This document shows positions 1 to 11,808 of a stretch of DNA of 11,808 nt, in pieces; the stretch's first letter is position 1; each line of letters opens with the position of its first letter. The translations under genes and the position numbers were made by a program. A model generated the notes under the pieces. The model was given only the letters and a program-made list of their open reading frames with translations, was not told where the DNA came from and did not search any database. Origin of the DNA: Candidatus Iainarchaeum sp. (GTDB lineage Archaea > Iainarchaeota > Iainarchaeia > Iainarchaeales > 0-14-0-20-30-16); contig CAIWXP010000120.1 in assembly GCA_903916665.1 (NCBI GenBank), forward strand, positions 1-11,808, written 5' to 3'.

Positions 1-298
1 TATTATTATTTTTTAATGTTACATAGAATAATTTAATATTATGTTTTCTTGCCATATAATCTTCTGCTAATTTAACCAATCCTTTACCTCTAGATTCTGG
101 AGACAAAACAATTTGAACAAAACCTGAATTCTCGGGTGATTTACAAGGTACAAATCCAACTACACCTACTTTTTTATTATCCCACATAATGCTGTAATAC
201 TTTCCATCTTCTACTATTTTCATAACATCTTTATCTTTTAAAGTTTTAAAATAATCTTCATCAAAATCTATTAACTTAACAGCCATCATATCAATCAT
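1..298 (-). CDS. GNAT-family N-acetyltransferase-like protein, partial (3-prime end lies beyond the left window edge)
   Basis: Absent from the supplied ORF track because it runs off the edge. The minus-strand frame is open from 298 to 1 (99 codons, no stop): MIDMMAVKLIDFDEDYFKTLKDKDVMKIVEDGKYYSIMWDNKKVGVVGFVPCKSPENSGFVQIVLSPESRGKGLVKLAEDYMARKHNIKLFYVTLKNNN. The ATG at 298-296 overlaps the TGA stop (297-295) of the upstream gene (ATGA overlap); alternative ATGs lie at 289 and 286. VLSPESRGKGLVKLAEDY resembles GNAT motif A (R/Q-x-x-G-x-G/A acetyl-CoA loop). The family call rests on this one motif. Confidence 0.5.
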   Translation of the reverse strand, partial: MIDMMAVKLIDFDEDYFKTLKDKDVMKIVEDGKYYSIMWDNKKVGVVGFVPCKSPENSGFVQIVLSPESRGKGLVKLAEDYMARKHNIKLFYVTLKNNN

Positions 299-1009: not shown

Positions 1010-1753
1010 TTAGGCTTTGATTTTAGAAAATAGATAACTTCCAATGCCCAATGCAACAAAAGTTAATAGCCCTAGAATTATAAAATCTAATAATATACCA
1101 AAATGTGCCACTCCACCAAATGCTGCTCGTAAACCATCCACCCCATAGGATAATGGGTCTACAACAGCAATCCAAGTTATAATAGAGGGCAAACCTTCTA
1201 AAGGGAATAATGCTCCTGATAAAAAGAAAATTGGCATTACTAAAAAATTCATAATCAATTGGAAACCTTGCATATCATCTAAAACTGAAGCAATTGCAGT
1301 TCCCAAAGCAGTAAAAAATAAAGCTATTAAGAAACCAAAAACTAAAGCCAAAGGCAATAAAGCAAAATTTATCTGGAAACCAAACAATAAAGAAATCAAA
1401 AGAACAATTAATCCTTGGGCCAATGAAATTGTTGCACCACCCAAAGTTCGTCCAACCATAATCTTAAATCTTGAAACTGGTGCAACTAAAGTTTCTTTCA
1501 AAAAACCAAACTGCTTATCCCAAATAATTTCTATACCTGAAAACAAAGCAGTAAATAAAATACTCATTGCAATAATCCCTGGTGCTAAAAATTGAATATA
1601 ACTACCTCCACCGGCTTTTGCAAATATTGGACCAAAGCCAAAGCCAAAGGCAACTAAAAATAATAAAGGTTGTGCTATTGAACCAATAATTCTTGATTTA
1701 GATCTTAAATATTTTTTAATTTGTCTTAACCAAAGAATACCAATAGGACCCAT
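1010..1753 (-). CDS. ABC-2 type transporter permease (DrrB/NodJ-like exporter membrane subunit)
   Basis: 247 aa with about six hydrophobic segments. The N-terminus LRQIKKYLRSKSRIIGSIAQPLLFL is typical of ABC-2 permeases. Its ATG (1753-1751) shares one base with the TAA stop (1755-1753) of the upstream ATPase gene (TAATG), which implies translational coupling. Confidence 0.85.
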   Translation of the reverse strand: MGPIGILWLRQIKKYLRSKSRIIGSIAQPLLFLVAFGFGFGPIFAKAGGGSYIQFLAPGIIAMSILFTALFSGIEIIWDKQFGFLKETLVAPVSRFKIMVGRTLGGATISLAQGLIVLLISLLFGFQINFALLPLALVFGFLIALFFTALGTAIASVLDDMQGFQLIMNFLVMPIFFLSGALFPLEGLPSIITWIAVVDPLSYGVDGLRAAFGGVAHFGILLDFIILGLLTFVALGIGSYLFSKIKA

Positions 1754-2556
1754 TACTTTCGCCCCCAGGCTTTTGCATGAACTTTAAACTGATCTTTAGT
1801 TGTTGCAATTTCATCTCTAATTTCATGACCTGTTAATTCAATAAATGCATCTTCCAAAGTTTTTGTTTTTGTTTGTTTTTTTAATTCTTCACCAGTGGAT
1901 TCAATAATAATCTTTCCTTTATCTATTATTGCAATCCTATTTGCAACTCTATCAGCTTCATCCATATAATGAGTTGTAAAAAATATTGTTGTTCCTTCTT
2001 CTTTATTCATTTTTAATATATAATCCCAAATATGATTTCTTGTTTGAGGATCTAAACCTAAAGTGGGTTCATCTAAAAATAATATTTTAGGATGATGTAA
2101 TAAACCTCTTGCAATTTCTAATCTTCGTTTCATACCACCAGAAAACTCTTTTACTAAACTATCTTTTCTTTCCCAAAGTTCAACAAACTTTAATAATTGT
2201 TCAATTCTTGGCTTTATTGTTTGTTTAGAAACATTATACAAAACAGCATGTAATTCCATATTTTCCCAAGCAGTTAAATCATCATCTAAGCTAGGATCTT
2301 GAAAAACTATACCAAAAGTTTTACGAATTTCGTTTGCACTAGTTGTTAAATCAAAACCATTTAATTTTACTATGCCAGAAGTTGGTTCTAAAATAGTAGT
2401 TAACATTTTAATGGTTGTTGACTTTCCAGCACCGTTTGGTCCTAGGAACGCAAATATGTCTCCTTGATTAACATCAAATGATATATTATCAACAGCAGTA
2501 AAGTCTTTGAACTTTTTCGTTAACCCTTTTACTTCAATTGAAAACATATACATCAC
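1753..2556 (-). CDS. ABC transporter ATP-binding protein (DrrA/NatA-like, partner of the ABC-2 permease)
   Basis: Walker A GPNGAGKST, Q-loop GIVFQDPSL, ABC signature FSGGMKRRLEIARGL, Walker B ILFLDEPTLGLD, H-loop FFTTHYMDEA and C-terminal LEDAFIELTG. The track start at 2556 is a GTG. In-frame ATGs at 2553 and 2547 (MFSIEVKGL...) are at least as likely, and GTGAT at 2556-2552 could serve as the RBS for the 2547 ATG. Confidence 0.95.
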   Translation of the reverse strand: MMYMFSIEVKGLTKKFKDFTAVDNISFDVNQGDIFAFLGPNGAGKSTTIKMLTTILEPTSGIVKLNGFDLTTSANEIRKTFGIVFQDPSLDDDLTAWENMELHAVLYNVSKQTIKPRIEQLLKFVELWERKDSLVKEFSGGMKRRLEIARGLLHHPKILFLDEPTLGLDPQTRNHIWDYILKMNKEEGTTIFFTTHYMDEADRVANRIAIIDKGKIIIESTGEELKKQTKTKTLEDAFIELTGHEIRDEIATTKDQFKVHAKAWGRK

Positions 2557-2684
2557 AAAATAAATACTAAAATAAGATTCTATTTTAATTTTGTTAATTT
2601 TCTAATAAAATTAAAATTAACTATAATTATAAAAAGCAAATTACATATATAAATGTATCGGTAACGATAGTTTGATAATCAATC

Positions 2685-3977
2685 CTATGGGTTAACTAAT
2701 TGACCCATAAATAATATATTTCTTGTTTCCTTATCAATTATGTAAAACATAAATGGATGATTTGCATCAAATACTTTTGGTTCCTGTGGATTTATAGGCA
2801 TTGCCGTAGCCACAACACCAATTACTGTTGCTGCAGCTGCTTCTGTTCCTTCTTCATTAACTTCAATAAATGCTTTATGTATTACATCAGAAACAAATAA
2901 ATTTTTATTGCCAGTAAATCCAGATAAATCTGCTTTATCTGTAAAAACATCTTTTAAACCCAAATCAATTAATTGATTCTTTAAATTATTGTAGGTAACT
3001 TCTAATTTAAATTTTGGTAAATATAAATCTACCTTCTCAAAATTCATATTACTTAAAACAGTATTTAATTTATTATTGTCAAAATCATTTAATGAATTTA
3101 AATCTGTTTTGGGTAAAACTACAATCATTGATAATTGATTTCCTTTATAAGGCAATTCAATTGCTTGTAATTTTGAATCTTCAAAATAATTAAATCTTTC
3201 ATCAAAAATACTCATATAATTTACTTTTGATGTTATACCAAAATCATTATTAAAATCTTTTTCTTCTGTATTTTCTGGTTTAAATGCCAATAACCAAGAT
3301 CCTTTAAAATATATTGCATTTGCAATAACAATTCTTGTTGATGAATCTATAAAATCCTTTGATATTATATCTTTAATTTTACCATTTGTTTGATTCTCAA
3401 CCCAAGTATTAATTATTTTTACTGCACCATCAACATTACTAAAATCCAAATTATCTAAATTTGCACCATAGTATTTTTTTGCATTGCCAATATATTCTGG
3501 TAATAACGAAAAGTTATTATTTACCCAAATAGCATTTGCAGTACTTAATTTATATTCATTATTATCACTATTATAAGAATTATAAATATTTGCAAAAGCA
3601 GGTCTTCTAATTTCTAAACTAGGATAACCAAAAACATCATCTAATTCTTTTTTTGTATTTTCTTTTGAAGCTTCACTTAAAATAGCAAAAGCATCTGTTA
3701 TACTATATGGTGAATAAAATTGATTCTCTGTTTTTGACAATTCTTTGTATAATTTAAAACCAAATTCATTATTTCCAGTAATAACACTTGATAAAGAATC
3801 TGAACTTAAATTATAATCAATAACTGAATTTGAATTATTTATGGTGTTTAAATCGTTTAAACCATTTGAATCAGAAATAACAGGATTATTATTACTATTA
3901 TCAACTAAAATTCCTACACCTAACACAATTCCAATAACTACTAAAATAACAACCGTTGTTAAAACTTTATATAACAT
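2685..3977 (-). CDS. Serpin (serine protease inhibitor, inhibitory type) with N-terminal signal-anchor and Asn/Ser-rich tether
   Basis: 430 aa. Serpin landmarks are NAIYFKGSW (s3A), LYLPKFKLE, HKAFIEVNEEGTEAAAAT (s5A plus hinge), and FDANHPFMFYI, which fits the PROSITE serpin signature pattern as I recall it. The C-terminus is LFMGQLVNP. The N-terminus MLYKVLTTVVILVVIGIVLGVGILV is one long hydrophobic helix with no lipobox Cys, followed by a low-complexity N/S linker of about 40 aa before the serpin core (NNEFGFKLYKEL...FYSPYSI). Confidence 0.95.
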   Translation of the reverse strand: MLYKVLTTVVILVVIGIVLGVGILVDNSNNNPVISDSNGLNDLNTINNSNSVIDYNLSSDSLSSVITGNNEFGFKLYKELSKTENQFYSPYSITDAFAILSEASKENTKKELDDVFGYPSLEIRRPAFANIYNSYNSDNNEYKLSTANAIWVNNNFSLLPEYIGNAKKYYGANLDNLDFSNVDGAVKIINTWVENQTNGKIKDIISKDFIDSSTRIVIANAIYFKGSWLLAFKPENTEEKDFNNDFGITSKVNYMSIFDERFNYFEDSKLQAIELPYKGNQLSMIVVLPKTDLNSLNDFDNNKLNTVLSNMNFEKVDLYLPKFKLEVTYNNLKNQLIDLGLKDVFTDKADLSGFTGNKNLFVSDVIHKAFIEVNEEGTEAAAATVIGVVATAMPINPQEPKVFDANHPFMFYIIDKETRNILFMGQLVNP

Positions 3978-3981
3978 AGAA

Positions 3982-3986
3982 TCACC
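3982..3986 (-). promoter_or_regulatory. Shine-Dalgarno-like GGTGA upstream of the serpin ATG
   Basis: The minus strand reads TATGGTGATTCT-ATG, with a 4-nt spacer. It is the only G-rich pentamer in this intergenic region. Confidence 0.35.
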
Positions 3987-4010
3987 ATAAACTACATTAG
4001 ATATAACTTT

Positions 4011-4024
4011 ATTTTATATATAAA
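4011..4024 (-). promoter_or_regulatory. Putative archaeal-type TATA box (TTTATATATAAAAT) for the serpin gene
   Basis: The minus strand reads CCAATAAG-TTTATATATAAAAT. The box centre is about 43 nt upstream of the serpin ATG (3977). A TSS about 26 nt downstream of the centre would give a leader of roughly 17 nt containing the GGTGA at 3986-3982. The AT-rich background makes chance TATA-like strings common. Confidence 0.35.
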
Positions 4025-4044
4025 CTTATTGGCTATATCAAAAA

Positions 4045-4518
4045 TTAATTCAATAAAACTATTGAAAAATTTAAAATACTGGCAAATGTTACCCAAAGTA
4101 AATAAGGTATTAGTAAATAAGCACTTATTGGTGATATTTCGAAACATATAATTATGTTTACTAATATAGCAATCCACAATATGAATATTTCTATTAATGC
4201 AAATAATGGTTTGTGTAAACCAAAAAACAAAATACTCCAAAACAAATTCAAAACCAATTGTATTGCAAAAACAATTAATGCTAATTTTACTCCTGAATAA
4301 CCAAAGCCATAGGACACTATTAAATACAAACTAATTCCCATTAAAATAAACAATGCTGTCCATACTGGTCCAAAAATCCAATTAGGGGGATTAAAAATTG
4401 GTTTTTTGATAGTTTTGTACCACGTTTTAACAGAATTTGTTGTAAATATTGACCCTAAAAAACCTATAATCAAAGGTATTGTAATACATATTATTAAGCT
4501 TAACAAATTAAATGTCAT
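4045..4518 (-). CDS. tspO: TspO/MBR family tryptophan-rich sensory protein (5-TM tetrapyrrole-binding membrane protein family)
   Basis: 157 aa with five hydrophobic helices. WYKTIKKPIFNPPNWIFGPVWTALFILMGISLYLI matches the conserved TspO N-terminal motif (WY..L.KP...PP...F..VW..LY..MG). The C-terminal YLLWVTFASILN matches the family's last helix. It lies 19 nt downstream of the preceding gene. Confidence 0.9.
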   Translation of the reverse strand: MTFNLLSLIICITIPLIIGFLGSIFTTNSVKTWYKTIKKPIFNPPNWIFGPVWTALFILMGISLYLIVSYGFGYSGVKLALIVFAIQLVLNLFWSILFFGLHKPLFALIEIFILWIAILVNIIICFEISPISAYLLIPYLLWVTFASILNFSIVLLN

Positions 4519-4537
4519 AGTATCACAAAATTATTAT

Positions 4538-4939
4538 TTATTGCATTTCTAATAAAACTTTCAAAAGATTTTCAGAATCTTTCATTTCTTTTTCAATGGC
4601 TTTAATAAATGATTCTGGTACTTTCTCTAAACCCATAAAATGTAAGCCATTACTTTCTAAATATAAATAACTTATTTTTAATTTTTGCAATGCTAAATAA
4701 TAGGGATCTTGAGATGCTTTTCTAATTTTGGAAACTTTTTTAGTTTTTAAATATTCTTTTAATAATCGTTCATATTCTGATCTTAAAAATTGTGCATGAT
4801 TATATGCTTTTTGAAAAAGATTCTTTGGTATGGGTCTAAATTTTAGATAACCAAATTCTCTCAATGCCCAAAGATCTGTTTCTGTTTGTTTAATTACTTC
4901 TCTAGATCTTGTATGGCATTCTGGAAATCTTACAGGCAT
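4538..4939 (-). CDS. Hypothetical protein, 133 aa, soluble, Lys/Glu-rich, predicted helical; no family recognised
   Basis: Clean ATG-to-TAA ORF. There are only 9 nt (AGTGAGAAT) between the giant gene's TAA and its ATG, and 19 nt to tspO. No TM segment or signal peptide. I could not assign any conserved motif (N-terminus MPVRFPECHTRSREV...). Support for a real gene comes from its operonic position and the lack of overlap with other ORFs. Confidence 0.6.
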   Translation of the reverse strand: MPVRFPECHTRSREVIKQTETDLWALREFGYLKFRPIPKNLFQKAYNHAQFLRSEYERLLKEYLKTKKVSKIRKASQDPYYLALQKLKISYLYLESNGLHFMGLEKVPESFIKAIEKEMKDSENLLKVLLEMQ

Positions 4940-4948
4940 ATTCTCACT

Positions 4949-7900
4949 TTAACTATAACTTAATGCATGATGTTTTTTTCGTTTTCTATTTGCACTATAA
5001 ATAATTATTGCTAAAATAATTATTAATACAATCATAATATACCAATAATTATTTGTTGTAGTATCTTGTTCAATACCATTGTTTGCTATTGGTTCTACAA
5101 CAGTATTATTATCTTCAACAATAACATTATTATTTTCTGAATTATTATTATCAATTACATTTGTATTATTGTTATTTGAAATTGTATTTGTATTATTATT
5201 TTCAACTACTGCATTATTATCTATTATTTTATTTACATCTTCTAATGCAATTATTGGATCATTTATTACTTTTAATTCAAAGTTTGCTTTTCCATTTGTA
5301 ATTGATAATAATTTTACGCTCAAATCATAGTTTCCATCACCATCATAGTCTCTTTTTATTGATTCACCAATTGCTAAAGTGTAATTCATTGGCGTAGAGT
5401 ATAAATCAAATGAAACACTATTAAAATCTGAATTTATATCTTTAATTATTAATTTATGTCTTATACCATAGTGTCCTTTTTTATCAACAGTAAATTCAAT
5501 TGTTTGATTTAAAGAAATACCTCTTAATACACCTGAGTTATTTACTACTAATGTATTAGATCCAGAACCTGAAGAATTAGAATTGTTATTTGGTTGTTGA
5601 TATTCTTCTAATCCTTGCCATCTTAATACAGGCAAACCATTTTGAGTTTCCCAAATAGTATTAAAATTCCAATTAGTTAAAGGTGCATTTGATGAATTGT
5701 AAAAATAACTTAAATTATTTTGGATTAAAGTACAATCTGTAGATAATGAATTATCATCTTCACTAATACAATCATACCCTGGATTACTAACATAGGATCC
5801 AACAACTAATGAATCGAATTCAGAATATTCATTATGTTGCTTTAAGCCTACTAAGCTTCCAATAGTATCTGGGCCATCACCTAAATTGGTTAAGTTACTC
5901 ACAGTAAAAGAATTTCTAATATCTTCTCCTGATAAGAATCCTACTAAACCACCTACATTATTGGAACCAGAAACATTTCCTGATGAATATGAATTATAAA
6001 TACTCATTTCTGCAGGACCCATAAATCCTACTAAACCACCTACATTATTGGAACCAAAAACATTTGATTTAGAATAACAATTTCTAATAATTGAATTATT
6101 TGCAGATCCTACTAAACCACCTACATTGTCACTACCAGAAACTAAATTATTATCTGAATAGGATTGTCTAATTGCACCTATATTTTGACCTGCTAAACCA
6201 CCTACTGCAAAATACCCCGTTACATTTCCATTAGCATAGGACTTACTAATAGTTCCTGAACTACTTCCAACCAATCCACCAATAGATTCACCAGAAGAAT
6301 TTACATTACCAGTAGCAAAGGAATTAGAAATATTACCATCGTAAGAAGCTCCAACTAAACCACCAACACCATAATTCCCATTTACATCAGCAGAAGAATG
6401 AGAATTAATGGTAGTACTTGTTTGTAATACACCTATTAATCCACCTACACTTTCATTATTTGCAAATACATTCCCAGATGAACTTGAATTAATTACTAAT
6501 CCATTATTTATTTCTGCAGCTAATATTCCTACAGTTGAAAAACCAATAATATTTGCATCAATTAAATTTACACTTGATATTATTGAATTATTAACAGTAC
6601 CAAATAACCCAACATGAGATCTATTAGGCCAATTAGCATACAAATTTAATATATTATAATTGTTTCCGTAAAAATTACCACTAAATTGATCATCCATACC
6701 TATTGTATAAAATCCATTACTTTCATTAGCATACCACGAATTTTCATTATCTTCACAATCTGTTTGATTATTATAATCAAAATCAGAACAATGTGCAGCA
6801 ACAAAATTCCACGTATTAGTATCAGAACAATCTATATTATTAATTAATTCATAATTGTTCCCCTGAGAATAATTTATATTCTGTAAATCTAAACATGAAT
6901 TTATATCATAGTGACCATCGTGATCATTATCATTGATTAATTGTTCCCAATATAATATAGGATAATTATCATCTCTTACTTTCCAAACAGTTGAAAAGTC
7001 CCAATAGCCTGATGCATAAACATTAAAATCAGGATTGTAAAAATCATTGTAATCTTGTGCTTTAAAAACATTATCTGGATATTCTTCTGCATCCCAATAG
7101 GGCATATTTGAATTATTATACCACCAAAAATTATTTACTGTAAAATCATCAGAATAATCATATAAAATAATTGCTGAATCTGGATTCAATGTATTTACTG
7201 TTGAATAACAATTATTTATTTCTAAATAGGGTACTTCGCCAACAAAACCACCTGATGCATTACCATTAATATCTCCAGTAGTATAGCTATTTGAAATAGT
7301 TAATGATAAACCACTATCATTATTCTCTGCTCCATAACCTACAAATCCACCTATATCTGAAAATGCATTTATATTTACATTTGCATAATCGTTGTAAAAA
7401 AGTAAACTATTGTCATTGGTGTAAGAATTAACTGTTCCAACTAAACCACCAACATCGCTTCCATTTAAAACAAAAATATTAACATCTGCAAATGATTGTA
7501 TAATACTAAATTCATAGTCTTCTTCTTCAACATTTTGACTTTCAAATAATCCTATAAATCCACCAACATTTTGTATTTCATTGTCAGAAGATATATTTCC
7601 TTTAAAATAGGATTTTTCAATGTGAACACTTGTTCTTCCTTCGTTATTTAATCCACCTACTAATCCACCAATATCACTACCAGTTACAAATATATTTGCA
7701 TCTGCACCTGTGTTTTGTATATTTGGATAGGGAGTATAACCAATTAATCCTCCAACATTCTGTTGTGCATTTATATCTCCATAAAATAATGAGTTTGTGA
7801 CATTAATACTTGATGTATAATATTGGTCTTCATCTGAGCTATAATACATTGCATAGCTAGATCCTACTAAACCACCAACATCATTTTGGCCAATAATATT

Positions 7901-10900
7901 AGCATCAACATAAACTGTATTCAAAGAACAATTTGGATTATCATCTTCAATATTACAATCCATTTCACCAATTATTCCTCCAACACTACTTCCACTATGA
8001 GCATCAATATTACCAAAGAAACTTGAATTATCAATTGTTATATCTGATCTATTATCACAGGGTTCTTGTCCTGAAATACCTACTAATCCACCAACATAAC
8101 CCATAACACCAAATATATTTGCATCAACTCTTGAATTCTTTATATTTGTAAAACAACTTAAACCTACTAATCCACCAACAGCAAATACACCTAAGAAACT
8201 ACCAGTAGCAGTTACATTTGTAATATTTAAATTATTATTTCCGGTTGACATTGATACCAACGCACCAACCATTATTTCTCCAATTATATTGGCATTAATT
8301 ATATTCAAATCCTTAATTGTTACTTCACTATTATTTGAATCAACAACACCAAACAAACTAGCAAAATTATTTTCTGAATTTATATACAAATTACTAATAC
8401 TATTATTATTACCATCAAAATTTCCAGTAAATGGAATTTCAGTTCCTAAAGGAATAAATCCCAAATATTTATCTTGAATCCAATTAGCTGCTTGAGCATC
8501 ACAATCTTCTGGATTATTAATATCAGGGAAACCATCACAGTGTGCAGGGACAAAATTCCATGTGTTAGTATCAGAACAATCAATATTATTTCCTAAACTA
8601 AAATTTGCATCTAAAAAATTGTTGATATCTTGTAATTGATTACAATCAGTAACAACAAATGGATCATCAAATGTTCCTGTACCAGAAAATGGCGCATATG
8701 TAACATTTACATTTATATCATTTATTGTTTCATTACCAGCATTATCTACTGCTTTAATAAAATAGGTATGTTCCCCCAATTCTTGTGTGTACACATTAAT
8801 TGAAGTATTCAAATCATTGCTTACCCAATTAACATTATTATCACTGAAAAGATATTCTTTTATTCCCGATAAACTATCTGTTCCAGTATAATTTAATTGA
8901 AAATCTAAAGTTGAATTATGAGTATATAAATCAGAATTATTATTTGGCGAATTAATATTTAAATCTGGTGCAGTTTTATCTATCAAAATATATTTTGTAT
9001 ATTGATTACCATCCACACCAAAGAAATTCTTTGAATAATAAGTAATTCCATTTCTACCTTCTGTTGTAAATGAAATATTTGAATTATATAATTCAGAAAT
9101 TATTCCCCCACCAACAATATTTTTCAATGTAAAACCTGTACCATCACCAAAAGAATATGCCCCATCACCAAGATCAACATATACATCGTGATTAAAAGTT
9201 ATTGGATCTACTAAATCAACAGCACTACTTGGATACTGTCTTACTACCCAGGCATTACCTTGAGAATCAAATGATATTCCTTTTTGCCAACCCAACCATG
9301 GATGAATATCAAGACTATTATTTAAAGGATTAATTACTGAAACTCCGTCCATTGCACCATAATCATTTGCTACCCAAACCTTACCATCTAAACCAATAGA
9401 AACATCATTAGGGTGATCTTGAAGATTAATTGTTGCAATTACAGACTGAGTTTCTGGATCAATTCTTGAAATTGAGTCACTCCAATAATTTGATACCCAA
9501 ACATTGTTATTTAAATCAACTGCAATACCTGTTGGAGATGCGCCTACCGAAATATTGTAATCATTTGTATTTGTTGTTGCATTTATAAAAAATACTTTGT
9601 CTAAACCACTTACTGCCACCCAAACATTTTGATCAGGACCTACTGCAATATCATAGGGATTACCACCAATATTAATTGTTGCAATAACTTCATTTGTATC
9701 TAAATCTATTCTATATACAAATCCATCAAAACTAGACACCCAAGCATTATTATTTGCATCAATTGCAATACCCCACGGTCTTGAATCTAAAGGAATTGTA
9801 TTAAAAATTTCATTTGTATTTGCATTAATACCATAAATTTCTGAAGAATCAAATCCAGTTACCCAAGCATTACCATAATTATCTACTGCAACACTATAGC
9901 CAACATTTGGAATATCTATTGTCGCTTCTAATTCATGAGTAATAGTATTTATTTTATATAATTTTTTTGCACTCGTTGCAGACACCCATAAAGTATCTGG
10001 AGAAAAATTATTAATTAAATAATAACTATTTCCACATCCTGATCCATTATCAACACAGGTTAAATGTAAATCTATATCACTATTATGCCACGCATCAAAA
10101 TTAATATCTACATCGGTTGTTGCAGATGCTGTTTGATATTTTAAAATTGGATAATTATTGTTTCTAGTTTTCCAAATGTTTTGTAAATCCCAAATCATAA
10201 TTGGATCCTCTACTTCAGAACCTTGGAACCAACCCAATCCTCCTCGCGCAGGAACCATTATATTACAATGAGAATTATCTTCTGAATCACAAAAAAGAGT
10301 ACTATCATCACTAGATTGGTAACCCCATAATTCATTTACAGAACCATAACTATTAACAGTTCCAAATAAAAAACCAACATCAAGAGGCCCAGAAATATTT
10401 CCAACACTAAATAAATTATTTGCATTTGTTAATTGAGTATCTACTCTACCAATTAAACCACCAGCATTACTTGATATTGCATTTACATCTCCAGAATTAT
10501 AGGAATTATTAATATAATTATTTGTTAACAAAAAACCAGCTAATCCACCAACATAATTATTTCCATCTATATTTCCAGAATTATAGCTATTTAAAATATT
10601 TAAATCATAGCCTGAATAACCAATTAAACCTGAAACATAATCATTACCAAAAATATTGCCTGTTGAAAAACTTTCATTAATTATTACATTATTATTAGTA
10701 TCAAACTGTTCTGATTGCCCAATTAAACCACCAACATAATTACTATTAGAATAAATTGATCCTATATTTAATGAACGGTAAATATTTGTTTGTCCATTAT
10801 CTGAACTTGCAGAACCAATAGCTCCTATTAATCCACCTACATTATTTGCATCATCAACAACATTAATATCAGCATAGTTACTAGAATTCAATATATTTGC

Positions 10901-11808
10901 AGCCCTAACTCCATTTCCTTCTCCCAATAATGCAATTAGACCCCCTACTGCATAACCAGAATTTCCAAAATCATAAATCTTACCATAGTTATCTGAATGA
11001 TTTACTGTAAAATTATTTGCAGTCAATACATACCCAATTAATCCACCTACATTTGTATACCCCTTAATTGTACCATAATTATTTGACCGATAAATATTTA
11101 CGTCTCCAAATGTACCAATATTAGCAATTAAACCAGCTGCATCAAAACTATCTAAATCAGTTGTATTAACATTTGCATAATTATTTGAATTAATTATATT
11201 TGTTATACCGCTTGCATTAATATTTAAATATCCTATAATACCTGCTGCATCCGAATGACCGGCAGAAATATTTCCTGAAACGTTAACATTGGAAACTGTG
11301 AAACTTACATTATGTTGGTCATAATCTACGCCTATCTGGCCAGCCAATGCACCAACATCTTCATAACCACTAATATTAAAATCTGCCAAAGTTAAATCTT
11401 TAATTACAACATTATTATCAACAAATATAGTACTAAATACTCCTACCGTAGATAAATTTGGATTATTAATATACAATCCACTTATTGTATGATGATTTCC
11501 ATCAAAATTACCTCTAAATGGATGAAAATAATCACCTATTGGTTGCCAACCCAATCCACCATTCCAAAAATCGCCACCTTCATGAGTTTGATCAAAACAA
11601 TTTATATCATTTGCTAAAGCAAAATAGGGTACATAAAAATTATCAAAATTATCTGGCTCAGTATTTGCAGGATCTAAATGAAAAATCATAAAAGACAGGT
11701 CCCAACAATTATATATTGGACAAGGATTATTAGATGTTTGACCTAATTTAAAGGTTCCATCATCGTTATAGTCTAAACAAATTCCATTGGCAAAAACTAA
11801 ATTTAAAA
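4949..11808 (-). CDS. Giant cell-surface protein (5-prime partial): 3x GLUG-motif beta-helix modules + beta-propeller + Ig-like domain + C-terminal TM anchor; putative adhesin
   Basis: The track ORF (4949..11689, 2246 aa) begins at an internal Met. I translated the same frame upstream (11690-11806) and it stays open to the window edge: ...LNLVFANGICLDYNDDGTFKLGQTSNNPCPIYNCWDLSF-MIFHLDP. At least 2,285 codons are therefore visible. There are about 31 GG[LI][VI]G-type GLUG motifs in three blocks, each ending in W.F..[IV]W......[YL]P[IV]L.[YW][QE]. The C-terminus is YWYIMIVLIIILAIIIYS + ANRKRKKHH. Paired Cys residues and very many N-x-S/T sequons fit an extracellular location. Confidence 0.9.
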   Translation of the reverse strand, partial: LNLVFANGICLDYNDDGTFKLGQTSNNPCPIYNCWDLSFMIFHLDPANTEPDNFDNFYVPYFALANDINCFDQTHEGGDFWNGGLGWQPIGDYFHPFRGNFDGNHHTISGLYINNPNLSTVGVFSTIFVDNNVVIKDLTLADFNISGYEDVGALAGQIGVDYDQHNVSFTVSNVNVSGNISAGHSDAAGIIGYLNINASGITNIINSNNYANVNTTDLDSFDAAGLIANIGTFGDVNIYRSNNYGTIKGYTNVGGLIGYVLTANNFTVNHSDNYGKIYDFGNSGYAVGGLIALLGEGNGVRAANILNSSNYADINVVDDANNVGGLIGAIGSASSDNGQTNIYRSLNIGSIYSNSNYVGGLIGQSEQFDTNNNVIINESFSTGNIFGNDYVSGLIGYSGYDLNILNSYNSGNIDGNNYVGGLAGFLLTNNYINNSYNSGDVNAISSNAGGLIGRVDTQLTNANNLFSVGNISGPLDVGFLFGTVNSYGSVNELWGYQSSDDSTLFCDSEDNSHCNIMVPARGGLGWFQGSEVEDPIMIWDLQNIWKTRNNNYPILKYQTASATTDVDINFDAWHNSDIDLHLTCVDNGSGCGNSYYLINNFSPDTLWVSATSAKKLYKINTITHELEATIDIPNVGYSVAVDNYGNAWVTGFDSSEIYGINANTNEIFNTIPLDSRPWGIAIDANNNAWVSSFDGFVYRIDLDTNEVIATINIGGNPYDIAVGPDQNVWVAVSGLDKVFFINATTNTNDYNISVGASPTGIAVDLNNNVWVSNYWSDSISRIDPETQSVIATINLQDHPNDVSIGLDGKVWVANDYGAMDGVSVINPLNNSLDIHPWLGWQKGISFDSQGNAWVVRQYPSSAVDLVDPITFNHDVYVDLGDGAYSFGDGTGFTLKNIVGGGIISELYNSNISFTTEGRNGITYYSKNFFGVDGNQYTKYILIDKTAPDLNINSPNNNSDLYTHNSTLDFQLNYTGTDSLSGIKEYLFSDNNVNWVSNDLNTSINVYTQELGEHTYFIKAVDNAGNETINDINVNVTYAPFSGTGTFDDPFVVTDCNQLQDINNFLDANFSLGNNIDCSDTNTWNFVPAHCDGFPDINNPEDCDAQAANWIQDKYLGFIPLGTEIPFTGNFDGNNNSISNLYINSENNFASLFGVVDSNNSEVTIKDLNIINANIIGEIMVGALVSMSTGNNNLNITNVTATGSFLGVFAVGGLVGLSCFTNIKNSRVDANIFGVMGYVGGLVGISGQEPCDNRSDITIDNSSFFGNIDAHSGSSVGGIIGEMDCNIEDDNPNCSLNTVYVDANIIGQNDVGGLVGSSYAMYYSSDEDQYYTSSINVTNSLFYGDINAQQNVGGLIGYTPYPNIQNTGADANIFVTGSDIGGLVGGLNNEGRTSVHIEKSYFKGNISSDNEIQNVGGFIGLFESQNVEEEDYEFSIIQSFADVNIFVLNGSDVGGLVGTVNSYTNDNSLLFYNDYANVNINAFSDIGGFVGYGAENNDSGLSLTISNSYTTGDINGNASGGFVGEVPYLEINNCYSTVNTLNPDSAIILYDYSDDFTVNNFWWYNNSNMPYWDAEEYPDNVFKAQDYNDFYNPDFNVYASGYWDFSTVWKVRDDNYPILYWEQLINDNDHDGHYDINSCLDLQNINYSQGNNYELINNIDCSDTNTWNFVAAHCSDFDYNNQTDCEDNENSWYANESNGFYTIGMDDQFSGNFYGNNYNILNLYANWPNRSHVGLFGTVNNSIISSVNLIDANIIGFSTVGILAAEINNGLVINSSSSGNVFANNESVGGLIGVLQTSTTINSHSSADVNGNYGVGGLVGASYDGNISNSFATGNVNSSGESIGGLVGSSSGTISKSYANGNVTGYFAVGGLAGQNIGAIRQSYSDNNLVSGSDNVGGLVGSANNSIIRNCYSKSNVFGSNNVGGLVGFMGPAEMSIYNSYSSGNVSGSNNVGGLVGFLSGEDIRNSFTVSNLTNLGDGPDTIGSLVGLKQHNEYSEFDSLVVGSYVSNPGYDCISEDDNSLSTDCTLIQNNLSYFYNSSNAPLTNWNFNTIWETQNGLPVLRWQGLEEYQQPNNNSNSSGSGSNTLVVNNSGVLRGISLNQTIEFTVDKKGHYGIRHKLIIKDINSDFNSVSFDLYSTPMNYTLAIGESIKRDYDGDGNYDLSVKLLSITNGKANFELKVINDPIIALEDVNKIIDNNAVVENNNTNTISNNNNTNVIDNNNSENNNVIVEDNNTVVEPIANNGIEQDTTTNNYWYIMIVLIIILAIIIYSANRKRKKHHALSYS
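4952..5047 (-). other. C-terminal transmembrane anchor plus basic cytoplasmic tail of the giant protein
   Basis: YWYIMIVLIIILAIIIYS (hydrophobic, about 18 aa) is followed by ANRKRKKHHALSYS and the stop. No LPXTG, PGF or PEP motif precedes it. Confidence 0.85.
5048..5254 (-). repeat. Asn-rich low-complexity stalk (NN[NT]x[VI][IV][DE] quasi-repeats)
   Basis: IIDNNAVVENNNTNTISNNNNTNVIDNNNSENNNVIVEDNNTVVEPIANNGIEQDTTTNN lies immediately before the TM anchor and contains several N-x-T/S sequons. Confidence 0.8.
5255..5551 (-). other. C-terminal membrane-proximal beta-sandwich-like domain of unknown family, with a DxDxDG loop
   Basis: LVVNNSGVLRGISLNQTIEFTVDKKGHYGIRHKLIIKDINSDFNSVSFDLYSTPMNYTLAIGESIKRDYDGDGNYDLSVKLLSITNGKANFELKVIND shows an alternating hydrophobic/polar beta pattern. 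It is bracketed by the low-complexity linkers QQPNNNSNSSGSGSN and the Asn-rich stalk. Confidence 0.45.
5609..6940 (-). repeat. GLUG beta-helix module 3 (Cys-rich head, about 9 short regular GLUG repeats, cap NWNFNTIWETQNGLPVLRWQ)
   Basis: The head is DHDGHYDINSCLDLQNINYSQGNNYELINNIDCSDTNTWNFVAAHCSDFDYNNQTDCED...FSGNFYGNNYNILNLYANWPNRSHVGLFGTV. It is followed by a regular period of about 22-29 aa, I.NS[YF]..GNV.G...VGGLVG. Examples: IRNCYSKSNVFGSNNVGGLVGF, IYNSYSSGNVSGSNNVGGLVGF. Confidence 0.8.
5937..6127 (-). repeat. Near-identical intragenic DNA direct repeats inside module 3
   Basis: 5937-5978 (aatcctactaaaccacctacattattggaaccagaaacattt) and 6024-6065 (aatcctactaaaccacctacattattggaaccaaaaacattt) differ at one position over about 42 nt and lie 87 nt (29 codons) apart. 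A third copy of the 22-nt core atcctactaaaccacctacatt is at 6106-6127. They encode (S/D)NNVGGLVG(F/S). Confidence 0.85.
6941..8689 (-). repeat. GLUG beta-helix module 2 (Cys-rich head, about 11 GLUG repeats, cap YWDFSTVWKVRDDNYPILYWEQ)
   Basis: The head is GTFDDPFVVTDCNQLQDINNFLDANFSLGNNIDCSDTNTWNFVPAHCDGFPDINNPEDCD...GFIPLGTEIPFTGNFDGNNNSISNLYINSENNFASLFGVV. GLUG motifs: VGALVSM, VGGLVGL, VGGLVGI, VGGIIGE, VGGLVGS, VGGLIGY, IGGLVGG, VGGFIGL, VGGLVGT, IGGFVGY, SGGFVGE. Confidence 0.8.
8690..8980 (-). other. Ig-like (OmpL47-type / bacterial Ig-like) domain of the giant protein
   Basis: KTAPDLNINSP...TGTDSLSGIKEYLFSDNNVNWVSNDL...ELGEHTYFIKAVDNAGNET follows the pattern TAP ... D.LSG[IV]...Y....W ... 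G.H.....A.D.AGN.E, which is typical of these Ig-like surface domains. Confidence 0.6.
9185..10009 (-). repeat. Beta-propeller region, 6-7 blades of about 41-43 aa (YVTN/NHL/Vgb-lyase-like repeats)
   Basis: The recurring unit is P.GIA[VI]D..[GN]N.WV.......I.RI[DN]..TN.VI.TI.[LI]. Examples: SRPWGIAIDANNNAWVSSFDGFVYRIDLDTNEVIATINIG, GNPYDIAVGPDQNVWVAVSGLDKVFFINATTN, ASPTGIAVDLNNNVWVSNYWSDSISRIDPETQSVIATINLQ, DHPNDVSIGLDGKVWVANDYG, WQKGISFDSQGNAWVV. Confidence 0.75.
10130..11808 (-). repeat. GLUG beta-helix module 1 of the giant protein (head partly outside the window; about 11 GLUG repeats; cap WDLQNIWKTRNNNYPILKYQ)
   Basis: The head is ...FALANDINCFDQ...GWQPIGDYFHPFRGNFDGNHHTISGLYINNPNLSTVGVF. 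It is followed by repeats of about 20-30 aa, each ending in VGALAGQ, AAGIIGY, AAGLIAN, VGGLIGY, VGGLIAL, VGGLIGA, VGGLIGQ, VSGLIGY, VGGLAGF, AGGLIGR or VGFLFGT. The cap motif is encoded at 10133-10192. Confidence 0.8.

Follow-up and report, generated by a model that had tools for sequence, protein, structure and literature searches.

Reading frame and its integrity

What is encoded by a reading frame that occupies 58% of the window, the whole 11,808-bp stretch of DNA analysed, and leaves it still open at one end? To answer this we translated the minus strand, on which positions 4952–11806 form a single stop-free frame of 2,285 sense codons, closed by a TAA stop at 4949–4951. No stop occurs 5′ of the frame up to the contig edge and, since the window is the entire contig, the N-terminus of the protein is truly absent. 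The original prediction had described the frame in just these terms, with its length, its share of the window and its missing N-terminus, though not its strand; the outer coordinate that it gave, 11808, lies two bases out of frame (the frame ends at 11806).

Could so long a frame arise by chance? At this base composition 0.091 stops are expected per codon, from which P ~1e-95 for 2,285 codons, and in 50 shuffles the longest open stretch reached 147 codons. A chance origin is impossible. A or T occupies 89% of third codon positions, as against 60–63% of positions 1 and 2, as expected of a real coding sequence. We conclude that the long frame is real and that it codes for a membrane-anchored surface protein of more than 2,285 residues, containing three GLUG β-helix modules, a β-propeller and an Ig-like domain. 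The visible part is acidic (pI about 4) and amounts to ~247 kDa. An exact look-up of this partial product gave no match, and in a scan of the JGI metagenomes with the propeller region the best identity was only 35%. Profile searches, together with two AlphaFold models, bear out nearly all the modules that had been predicted. From N- to C-terminus its parts are as follows.

11726..11806, minus strand: N-terminal fragment, aa 1–27, preceding the first GLUG head; cut by the contig end, frame open to the edge
10127..11725, minus strand: GLUG module 1, aa 28–560 (Pfam Glug, motif list, paralogy to module 2)
10004..10126, minus strand: linker, aa 561–601, with the Cys pair C584/C591 (TCVDNGSGC); low AlphaFold confidence
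9161..10003, minus strand: YVTN/NHL-type β-propeller, aa 602–882 (profiles, AlphaFold, Foldseek, phmmer)
8927..9160, minus strand: β-rich spacer, aa 883–960, with an FGDG motif; poorly modelled (pLDDT <50)
8696..8926, minus strand: Ig-like domain, aa 961–1037, signature ...TGTDSLSGIKEY...GEHTYFIKAVDNAGN... (sub-threshold profiles; match to the Ig repeats of P0076 and P0094)
6929..8695, minus strand: GLUG module 2, aa 1038–1626 (Pfam Glug, motif list, paralogy)
5609..6928, minus strand: GLUG module 3, aa 1627–2066 (Pfam Glug, AlphaFold, Foldseek)
5270..5608, minus strand: Ser/Asn linker, aa 2067–2084, then small β-sandwich, aa 2085–2179 (AlphaFold)
5048..5269, minus strand: Asn-rich low-complexity stalk, aa 2180–2253 (33% Asn; disordered in the AlphaFold model)
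4952..5047, minus strand: TM helix, aa 2254–2272 (YWYIMIVLIIILAIIIYSA), and basic tail (NRKRKKHHALSYS) (hydrophobicity, AlphaFold helix)

Might the frame nevertheless be an artefact of assembly, a chimera or the collapsed repeat modules of several genes? The sequence comes from a short-read metagenome contig whose end cuts through the gene, and the encoded protein is repetitive. However, the GLUG modules are only 28–36% identical in protein, and the longest DNA repeats inside the gene measure 66 nt (83% identical) and 98 nt (76% identical). These are too diverged for misassembly, so that a collapse of repeats is unlikely. At the module boundaries, where a frameshift or chimera had been envisaged as the weak point of the original prediction, the frame is intact, as it is across all 6.9 kb; no shift in base composition, GC skew or codon-position bias was seen along the gene. 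Moreover, the 3′ end of the gene recurs in independent assemblies: two of them, from ENA (L001 and L002), match the final ~100 codons and the genes downstream at 100% identity. An assembly artefact is scarcely credible.

The GLUG β-helix modules

The chain had been predicted to hold three GLUG modules, and several lines of evidence bear this out. The Pfam family Glug (PF07581) scores 71.9 bits (cut-off 20.5), with four reported stretches along the chain, the strongest of them at aa 1810–1836 in module 3. Motifs of the type G-G-[LF]-[IV]-G, 26 in number and 27–40 aa apart, fall into three clusters (aa 188–449, 1211–1519 and 1788–1952). The modules are paralogous over their full length: residues 16–558 (module 1) align to 1066–1621 (module 2) with E 8e-39, and 1068–1484 (module 2) to 1651–2016 (module 3) with E 5e-60. 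The two heads of the first pair align only from about aa 28 (PIYNCWDL in module 1, PFVVTDCNQL in module 2).

How is each module built? Module 1 has a Cys-containing head ending PIG...F.G.FDGN.H.I..L.I, at least nine GLUG turns (aa 188–449) and a cap that ends W..Q.IW.....NYPILKY. Module 2 has a four-Cys head, ten GLUG turns (aa 1211–1519) and a cap ending YWDFSTVWKVRDDNYPILYW. In module 3 a four-Cys head is followed by seven regular turns of 27–29 aa (aa 1788–1952) and a cap ending WNFNTIWETQNGLPVLRW. The Cys quartets are conserved between the heads of modules 2 and 3, which is consistent with an extracellular location of the heads. With a Cys head, turns of 27–29 aa and a W...W...YP.L cap, the modules are a clean example of their kind with clear boundaries.

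The fold was read from the AlphaFold model of module 3, and modules 1 and 2 were assigned to it by paralogy. Residues 1627–1966 of module 3 form a β-solenoid of three strands per turn at pLDDT >90, whereas its cap, like the other caps, the spacer at aa 883–960 and the Ig-like domain, is modelled at low confidence. Compared with 3n6z, the module 3 model gives a Foldseek E of 4e-06 and an rmsd of 3.0 Å over 307 columns. It also matches the IgA1 proteases 7uvk, 6xjb and 6xja with a probability of 1.00.

The propeller, the spacer and the Ig-like domain

What separates module 1 from module 2? The linker sequence TCVDNGSGCGNSYY, at aa 583, carries the predicted pair of cysteines (C584 and C591). Beyond it, the propeller, for which six to seven blades had been foreseen, is recognized by the YVTN repeat model TIGR02276 (55.6 bits against 27.85, in four stretches) and by Vgb_lyase, PF24684 (51.1 bits against a cut-off of 50). 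AlphaFold places 27 strands here at pLDDT >90, a model consistent with a roughly seven-bladed propeller of ~41 aa per blade; in the DNA, four copies of a repeat (family D7) are spaced ~123 nt apart in this region. By sequence and by fold alike the top match is 1l0q_A (phmmer E 4.5e-25; Foldseek E 2e-21 over 457 columns). The next Foldseek matches are the BtuG surface lipoproteins; BtuG binds its ligand on the propeller face.

The spacer that follows (aa 883–960) may be a degenerate PKD-like domain. An FGDG motif stands at aa 886–889, just after the propeller, but where phmmer aligns the spacer with the PKD domain of 1l0q, around WDFGDG, the alignment is non-significant, and the Pfam profiles give no PKD match after the propeller.

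Is the Ig-like domain at aa 961–1037 akin to OmpL47, as had been predicted? Its score against OmpL47 (NF047446), 21.8 bits, is below the cut-off of 40, as are its scores against Big_13 (18.3, below 27) and Big_7 (14, below 24.1). On the other hand, it is homologous to eight tandem Ig repeats of two GLUG proteins, P0076 and P0094 (E per domain as low as 4e-08). We therefore describe it as Ig-like without a named family.

The C-terminal anchor

A small β-sandwich, an Asn stalk, a TM helix and a basic tail were all found where they had been predicted. The sandwich has eight strands in the AlphaFold model, mostly at a pLDDT of about 70–85; it matches no Pfam family, and its structural matches are to generic small-sandwich folds only. 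One third (33%) of the residues of the stalk are Asn. The segment before the TM helix reads ...EQDTTTNNYWYIM. The helix itself (aa 2254–2272) is the sole strong hydrophobic segment at the C-terminus and is followed by the basic tail NRKRKKHHALSYS; AlphaFold models a C-terminal helix at aa 2253–2277. Helix and tail are identical in sequence in the L001 and L002 assemblies. None of the sorting motifs LPx[TSA][GAN], PGF, PEF and PEP occurs in the whole visible protein, and for want of such a motif we rejected it as a substrate of sortase (LPxTG) or of archaeosortase/exosortase (PGF-, PEF- or PEP-CTERM).

Relatives

How unusual is this protein? GLUG giants number in thousands, and five to nine modules per protein are common among them. 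Their head–repeat–cap β-helix is the same and is likewise reused along the chain, as in P0001 (3,707 aa), P0002 (2,622 aa, from an archaeal contig) and P0005 (nine modules); identity is 27–39%, the alignments cover as much as 45% of the query, the best E is 4e-227, and the modules recur with a periodicity of 330–560 aa. Some of the giants (P0076, P0094) also share the Ig repeat. Most are anchored or secreted otherwise, by TPS, T9SS or flagellin termini, and the homologues carry TPS, ESPR, T9SS, cadherin, FN3 and HYR domains, that is, they occur in surface and adhesin contexts. One has an adjacent ShlB/TpsB transporter gene. Elsewhere, GLUG modules are found in haemagglutinin-like proteins of two-partner secretion, in T9SS-sorted surface proteins and in the substrate-contacting β-helix of streptococcal IgA1 proteases.

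No member of the GLUG family with the present architecture has been characterized experimentally, so that the earlier statement that no characterized protein has three such modules is literally true. As a mark of novelty it fails. The head recurs up to nine times per protein among the 120 best homologues, at least 30 of which have five or more copies, and a C-terminal TM helix with basic tail is present in three of the 120 (P0027, P0036 and P0082). The propeller is another matter: the 120 best GLUG relatives all lack one in the same chain, and the pairing is absent from the 59 word-indexed and the 150 best exhaustive matches to the propeller. Judged from the sequences compared, the union of GLUG helix and YVTN propeller within a single chain does look unusual. 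The gene thus adds the YVTN propeller, not seen in the relatives examined, as a domain partner of GLUG. What is new in the protein is the mix of domains; the kind is known, a large family of presumed adhesins that has been little studied.

The GLUG β-helix fold is shared with the M26 IgA1 metalloproteases of Streptococcus and Gemella (ZmpA; 6XJA, 6XJB, 7UVK, 7UVL) and with 3N6Z, the β-helix of a 'putative IgA1 protease' of Bacteroides ovatus (Foldseek E 4e-06 to 2e-04, probability 1.00). The proteases have one such helix, the present protein three, with other accompanying domains and another anchoring. In IgA1 protease the helix is mobile and gates the active site, moving ~10 Å upon IgA1 binding (PMC7695701). 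Is the present protein then an IgA1 protease? Peptidase_M26_N scores 21.5 bits, below its cut-off of 27.7, and ZmpA 29 bits (cut-off 3000); motif and profile searches of the 2,285 aa returned neither HExxH nor Peptidase_M26_C. Having neither the M26 catalytic domain nor HExxH, it was rejected as an IgA1 protease.

The YVTN–PKD surface protein of Methanosarcina mazei (1L0Q), likewise extracellular, has a YVTN propeller of seven blades with a β-sandwich after it. Its identity to the present protein is only ~20–30%; here the propeller unit sits between GLUG β-helices, and the domain after it is poorly modelled and no clear PKD. Propeller and Ig units on surface proteins are already well known (1L0Q, P0305). 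The giants of the SPEARE or SVXNc_0300 type from nanohaloarchaea (DPANN) are also very large, acidic, membrane-anchored ectodomains with Ig-like modules, and have been proposed to bind host cells (PMC10266531). They differ in their length (5,000–9,400 aa), their VirB4/TraG-like ATPase domain and their N-terminal signal peptide; GLUG modules are not reported for them, and the likeness is one of size, charge and layout. Among the giant surface proteins of uncultured bacteria and archaea GLUG modules are common; in the literature searched, only five papers name them. One paper proposes that the GLUG proteins of a host-associated archaeon are adhesin-like and terms the motif itself 'of unknown function' (PMC9723798).

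Proposed role and its alternatives

What might such a protein do? We infer that it is probably a cell-surface, type-I-anchored, rigid and multivalent binding protein, that is, adhesin-like; a surface-exposed, C-terminally anchored binding protein is also the most reasonable reading of the architecture originally predicted. A signal peptide located off the contig would direct its export; the lone C-terminal helix would fix it in the membrane, leaving the short basic tail in the cytoplasm. Outward from the membrane would then come the flexible Asn-rich stalk, the small β-sandwich and GLUG modules 3 and 2; beyond module 2, the Ig-like domain, the seven-bladed YVTN propeller and at least one further GLUG β-helix, module 1. 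The heads of the modules would be extracellular and presumably stabilized by disulfides, while the faces of the β-helices and the top face of the propeller might bind a partner surface or polymer.

Might the protein instead be a structural component of the envelope, of the S-layer type, that forms or decorates a surface layer and binds no foreign partner? Archaeal S-layer proteins are commonly tethered by a C-terminal TM anchor with a stalk. Both are present here, in an acidic protein (pI about 4), and the PDB entry closest to the propeller unit bears the annotation 'surface layer protein', from Methanosarcina. However, at >247 kDa the protein is far above typical lattice-forming S-layer proteins, the profile searches returned no S-layer family (SLH, DUF1608 etc.), and a mosaic of many fast-diverging modules is typical of adhesins; we consider a structural role rather unlikely. 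A displayed enzyme, with the propeller as a Vgb-type lyase or lactonase or the β-helices as polysaccharide lyases or hydrolases acting on a substrate or host wall, seems to us unlikely. The Vgb_lyase score, just over its threshold, makes activity of the propeller a formal possibility, and Foldseek matches Vgb lyase structures with E ~1e-13; yet no Vgb structure is among the PDB sequence matches at E ≤ 1, whereas good sequence matches are found among non-enzymatic propellers (YVTN, PknD-sensor, Pizza). The parallel β-helix is indeed a common fold of polysaccharide-active enzymes (Foldseek ranks 7–40), but helices of the pectate-lyase type match with a probability of 0.04–0.28, as against 1.00 for GLUG helices, and no catalytic motif was found in the visible 2,285 aa.

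There is little to recommend contact-dependent delivery of an effector or toxin, of the filamentous-haemagglutinin/CDI type. Many of the best GLUG homologues do carry TPS (PF05860) and ESPR and are named as filamentous haemagglutinin family, and a TpsB transporter lies downstream of one of them. Here, however, the C-terminus is a membrane anchor, atypical for TPS exoproteins, and not a toxin domain, and the 4.9 kb downstream hold no TpsB or immunity-like gene. TPS systems, moreover, need an outer membrane, which DPANN archaea and CPR bacteria are not known to have. We judge such a role very unlikely.

A more specific form of the adhesin-like role, which we consider rather unlikely, is that the protein attaches an ultra-small DPANN or CPR episymbiont to its host or partner, its propeller, newly inserted between GLUG helices, being a receptor-binding head on rigid β-helical spacers. 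Such an architecture would be new among the adhesins described, and in it the GLUG module would serve as a structural spacer or a secondary binding surface. Should the source be such an episymbiont, the gene would be a candidate for mediating attachment. As the evidence stands, the protein adds one to the known mosaic surface proteins and opens no long-standing question.

Neighbouring genes

The next genes downstream of the GLUG gene encode a 133-aa protein, TspO and a serpin. The 133-aa protein had no relative in a scan of genome contigs, and exact matches to it and to the ABC ATPase were found only on contigs of 1.3–1.5 kb; an exact look-up of the serpin gave no match. A sigma-70 scan returned 39 promoter-like sites where 41 were expected, the terminator scan found 0 terminators, and tRNA and Rfam searches of the window gave no match. 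The closest copies of the ABC operon are in 'Micrarchaeota' MAGs (70–76% identity), followed by dozens of CPR MAGs (66–72%), and in three CPR loci TspO adjoins the ABC genes, which speaks for the CPR side. Ribosome-binding sites of the GGTGAT/GTGAT type, together with a TATA-like box that precedes the start of SdpI by 29 nt, may lean, weakly, to the archaeal side.

Integrity of the giant reading frame

Could chance or faulty assembly have produced a reading frame of this size? All 11 listed gene-like ORFs of at least 60 aa in the window lie on the minus strand, and the giant frame runs for 2,285 sense codons to a TAA at 4949–4951 and is open upstream to the contig end. At the stop frequency given by base composition (0.091 per codon), P for this frame is about 1e-95; the longest open stretch in 50 shuffles was 147 codons. 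A or T fills 89% of third codon positions, matching real coding sequence in a genome of about 27% GC. Chance cannot explain the frame. It is real, as originally predicted, save that its outer coordinate of 11808 must be amended, the correct frame starting at 11806. Since the window is the whole contig, the N-terminus is truly absent.

The original prediction had also left room for an assembly artefact. This is very unlikely: the longest internal DNA repeats, 66 nt (83% identity) and 98 nt (76%), are short and too diverged to be misassembled, and window positions 1624–3150 and 3922–5249 are matched independently, at 99.5–100% identity, by three short contigs belonging to other ENA assemblies. 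The first 1,281 nt of one ENA contig, k141_816506, are 100% identical to the window, while its last 53 nt (1282–1334) are without a match, reflecting either strain variation at the serpin gene start or a chimeric contig end.

GLUG modules, propeller and membrane anchor

The Pfam Glug profile (PF07581) scores 71.9 bits on the giant protein against a cut-off of 20.5, and a motif scan found 26 cores of the G-G-[LF]-[IV]-G type in three clusters.

Residue positions of the GLUG core clusters and linker (gene on the minus strand)
aa 188–449: GLUG cores, first cluster
aa 583–591: Cys-pair linker TCVDNGSGC, between module 1 and the propeller
aa 1211–1519: GLUG cores, second cluster
aa 1788–1952: GLUG cores, third cluster

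Judged by alignment, the clusters sit in full-length paralogous modules: module 1 (16–558) aligns with module 2 (1066–1621) at 28% identity (E 8e-39), and module 2 (1068–1484) with module 3 (1651–2016) at 36% (E 5e-60). Each begins with a head ending in PIG...F.G.FDGN.H.I.NL.I, continues with GLUG turns and closes with a cap ending in W.F..(I/V)W......(Y/L)P(I/V)L. The module 2 and module 3 heads share four conserved cysteines. We modelled aa 1627–2285 with AlphaFold from an alignment of the three window modules and 16 modules carved from homologues. Residues 1627–1966 are predicted as a three-strand-per-turn beta-solenoid with pLDDT above 90; the module 3 cap is of low confidence. In Foldseek the solenoid matches the Bacteroides ovatus GLUG beta-helix 3N6Z (E 4e-06, rmsd 3.0 Å over 307 columns) and the IgA1 proteases 7UVK, 6XJB, 7UVL and 6XJA; pectate-lyase-type helices reach a Foldseek probability of only 0.04–0.28. 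The modelled solenoid thus groups with the solved GLUG beta-helices.

What lies between modules 1 and 2? The proposed propeller scores 55.6 bits with the YVTN profile TIGR02276 (cut-off 27.85) and 51.1 bits with PF24684 (cut-off 50). In the AlphaFold model of aa 558–1060, residues 602–882 form 27 strands with pLDDT above 90, consistent with seven blades. Among PDB entries, 1L0Q is closest to it both in sequence (E 4.5e-25) and in fold (E 2e-21, 457 columns); this structure shows tandem YVTN-propeller and PKD domains from a surface protein of Methanosarcina. Next, by fold alone, come surface lipoproteins of the BtuG type and Vgb lyase. Residues 883–960 are poorly modelled. The adjoining segment (961–1037) had been called an OmpL47-like Ig domain. 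Its Ig-like character holds, in that it matches eight tandem Ig repeats in two GLUG proteins (P0076 and P0094); the OmpL47 label does not, its match being below threshold, like those to Big_13 and Big_7.

At the C-terminus, an eight-strand sandwich (aa 2085–2179, pLDDT mostly about 70–85) and a stalk, 33% Asn and disordered in the model, are followed by a single strong hydrophobic helix, YWYIMIVLIIILAIIIYSA, and then NRKRKKHHALSYS; AlphaFold places a helix at 2253–2277. The giant protein lacks HExxH and any sorting motif for sortase or archaeosortase, and identity as an M26 protease is ruled out, the catalytic features being absent. Profiles, paralogy and models together show the predicted architecture to have been right nearly item by item.

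How unusual is this architecture?

In a word-indexed search in which 8,000 candidates were scored, 1,729 GLUG proteins reached E <= 1e-5. The best 120, nearly all giants of 1,400–4,000 aa, are 25–42% identical over 9–45% of the query. Heads and caps repeat along the best relatives with a period of about 330–560 aa. Heads number up to nine (in P0005), seven in four others and at least five in at least 30 of the best 120, so three modules are ordinary; a C-terminal TM helix with basic tail occurs in 3 of the 120. The novelty originally claimed for three modules with such an anchor is thereby lost.

The propeller is another matter. It is present in none of the best 120 GLUG giants; PF07581 is found in none of 59 word-indexed propeller relatives; and an exhaustive HMMER search across 1.84 billion representatives gave 29,058 propeller matches, headed by multi-propeller giants from bacteria with T9SS, the best 150 of which contain no GLUG module. 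A JGI metagenome scan gave no close propeller relative, the best being 35% identical. Among the best matches listed, the pairing of GLUG with a YVTN propeller appears uncommon; as the top of each list was inspected, it is rare rather than demonstrably unique. All parts of the protein are assignable to known families, and we place it among the GLUG motif-containing surface proteins, whose features it bears.

Proposed function

The analysis establishes the folds, the module order, the single C-terminal TM helix and the absence of catalytic signatures. Beyond this, we propose a type I surface protein. Stalk and sandwich would lift a rigid beta-helix chain and the propeller–Ig unit off the membrane, and binding would occur through the helix faces and the propeller top face. 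We propose a binding protein because of the domains accompanying GLUG modules in homologues, which are diverse (TPS, ESPR, T9SS sorting, cadherin, FN3, HYR, flagellin N/C termini), and because the GLUG beta-helix in IgA1-protease structures moves when substrate binds. That helix is independently folding and mobile, gates the active site and shifts on substrate binding (PMC7695701). Methanimicrococcus GLUG proteins have been proposed as adhesin-like (PMC9723798), and ectodomain proteins of giant size, anchored in the membrane, are well recognised in DPANN archaea (PMC10266531). That the protein is instead an S-layer component, a surface enzyme or a CDI-type effector is in each case less well supported than binding.

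Neighbouring genes and possible archaeal signals

Genes downstream of the giant gene
4538–4939, minus strand: 133-aa protein, no Pfam family
between this gene and the serpin, minus strand: TspO
2685–3977, minus strand: serpin, 430 aa (PF00079, E 3e-110), third gene downstream
1010–2556, minus strand: ABC-2 exporter pair, downstream of the serpin
between the ABC-2 pair and GNAT, minus strand: SdpI-like membrane protein
2–298, minus strand: partial GNAT acetyltransferase ORF (PF00583, 24.3 bits, cut-off 20.7)

The 133-aa protein, predicted to be cytoplasmic, starts 9 nt past the giant gene stop, so that co-transcription is probable. Two further ENA assemblies carry it at 100% identity, and a search of 185,579 species genomes found no relative. 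An N-terminal TM helix plus an Asn/Ser-rich spacer mark the serpin as a membrane-tethered protease inhibitor, and it could protect envelope proteins. The GNAT ORF is cut by the contig start, and shares 4 nt with the 3' end of the SdpI-like gene. The neighbourhood is envelope-flavoured; no functional tie of the downstream genes to the giant gene was found in it.

Identity of the ABC pair is 70–76% to its counterparts in MAGs with the label Micrarchaeota, and 66–72% to those in Woesearchaeota, Nanoarchaeota and many CPR MAGs; TspO adjoins it, about 1 kb upstream, in three CPR loci (L031, L022, L054). This suggests a cassette common to different domains of life, and its presence in both DPANN and CPR MAGs deprives it of value for taxonomic placement. 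Ribosome-binding sites resembling GGTGAT, together with a TATA-like box, lean archaeal. The window probably comes from a lineage of ultra-small cells, DPANN or CPR. P0002, the closest well-covering GLUG homologue, is on an archaeal contig with Alba and MJ0043_C (JGI 3300041075, Ga0452204_002472); another homologue, P0004, is bacterial, with a TpsB partner. A second giant gene, which encodes more than 3,111 aa and carries repeats of CBM96 and disaggregatase type, lies about 4 kb from P0002.

Other carriers of GLUG modules

About 25 homologues of 2,126–2,491 aa (P0037, P0042, P0050 and others in the range P0071–P0120) join flagellin N/C domains (PF00669, PF00700) with GLUG repeats; these would be giant flagellins with the GLUG beta-helix as a surface-exposed insert. 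A BFVD fold search gave predicted GLUG-like beta-helices (E 1e-6 to 3e-10) in the phaeovirus proteins EsV-1-160 and FirrV-1-A51, in an environmental protein of Megaviridae and in a 'putative IgA1 protease' of Siphoviridae, so viruses too would seem to use the module.
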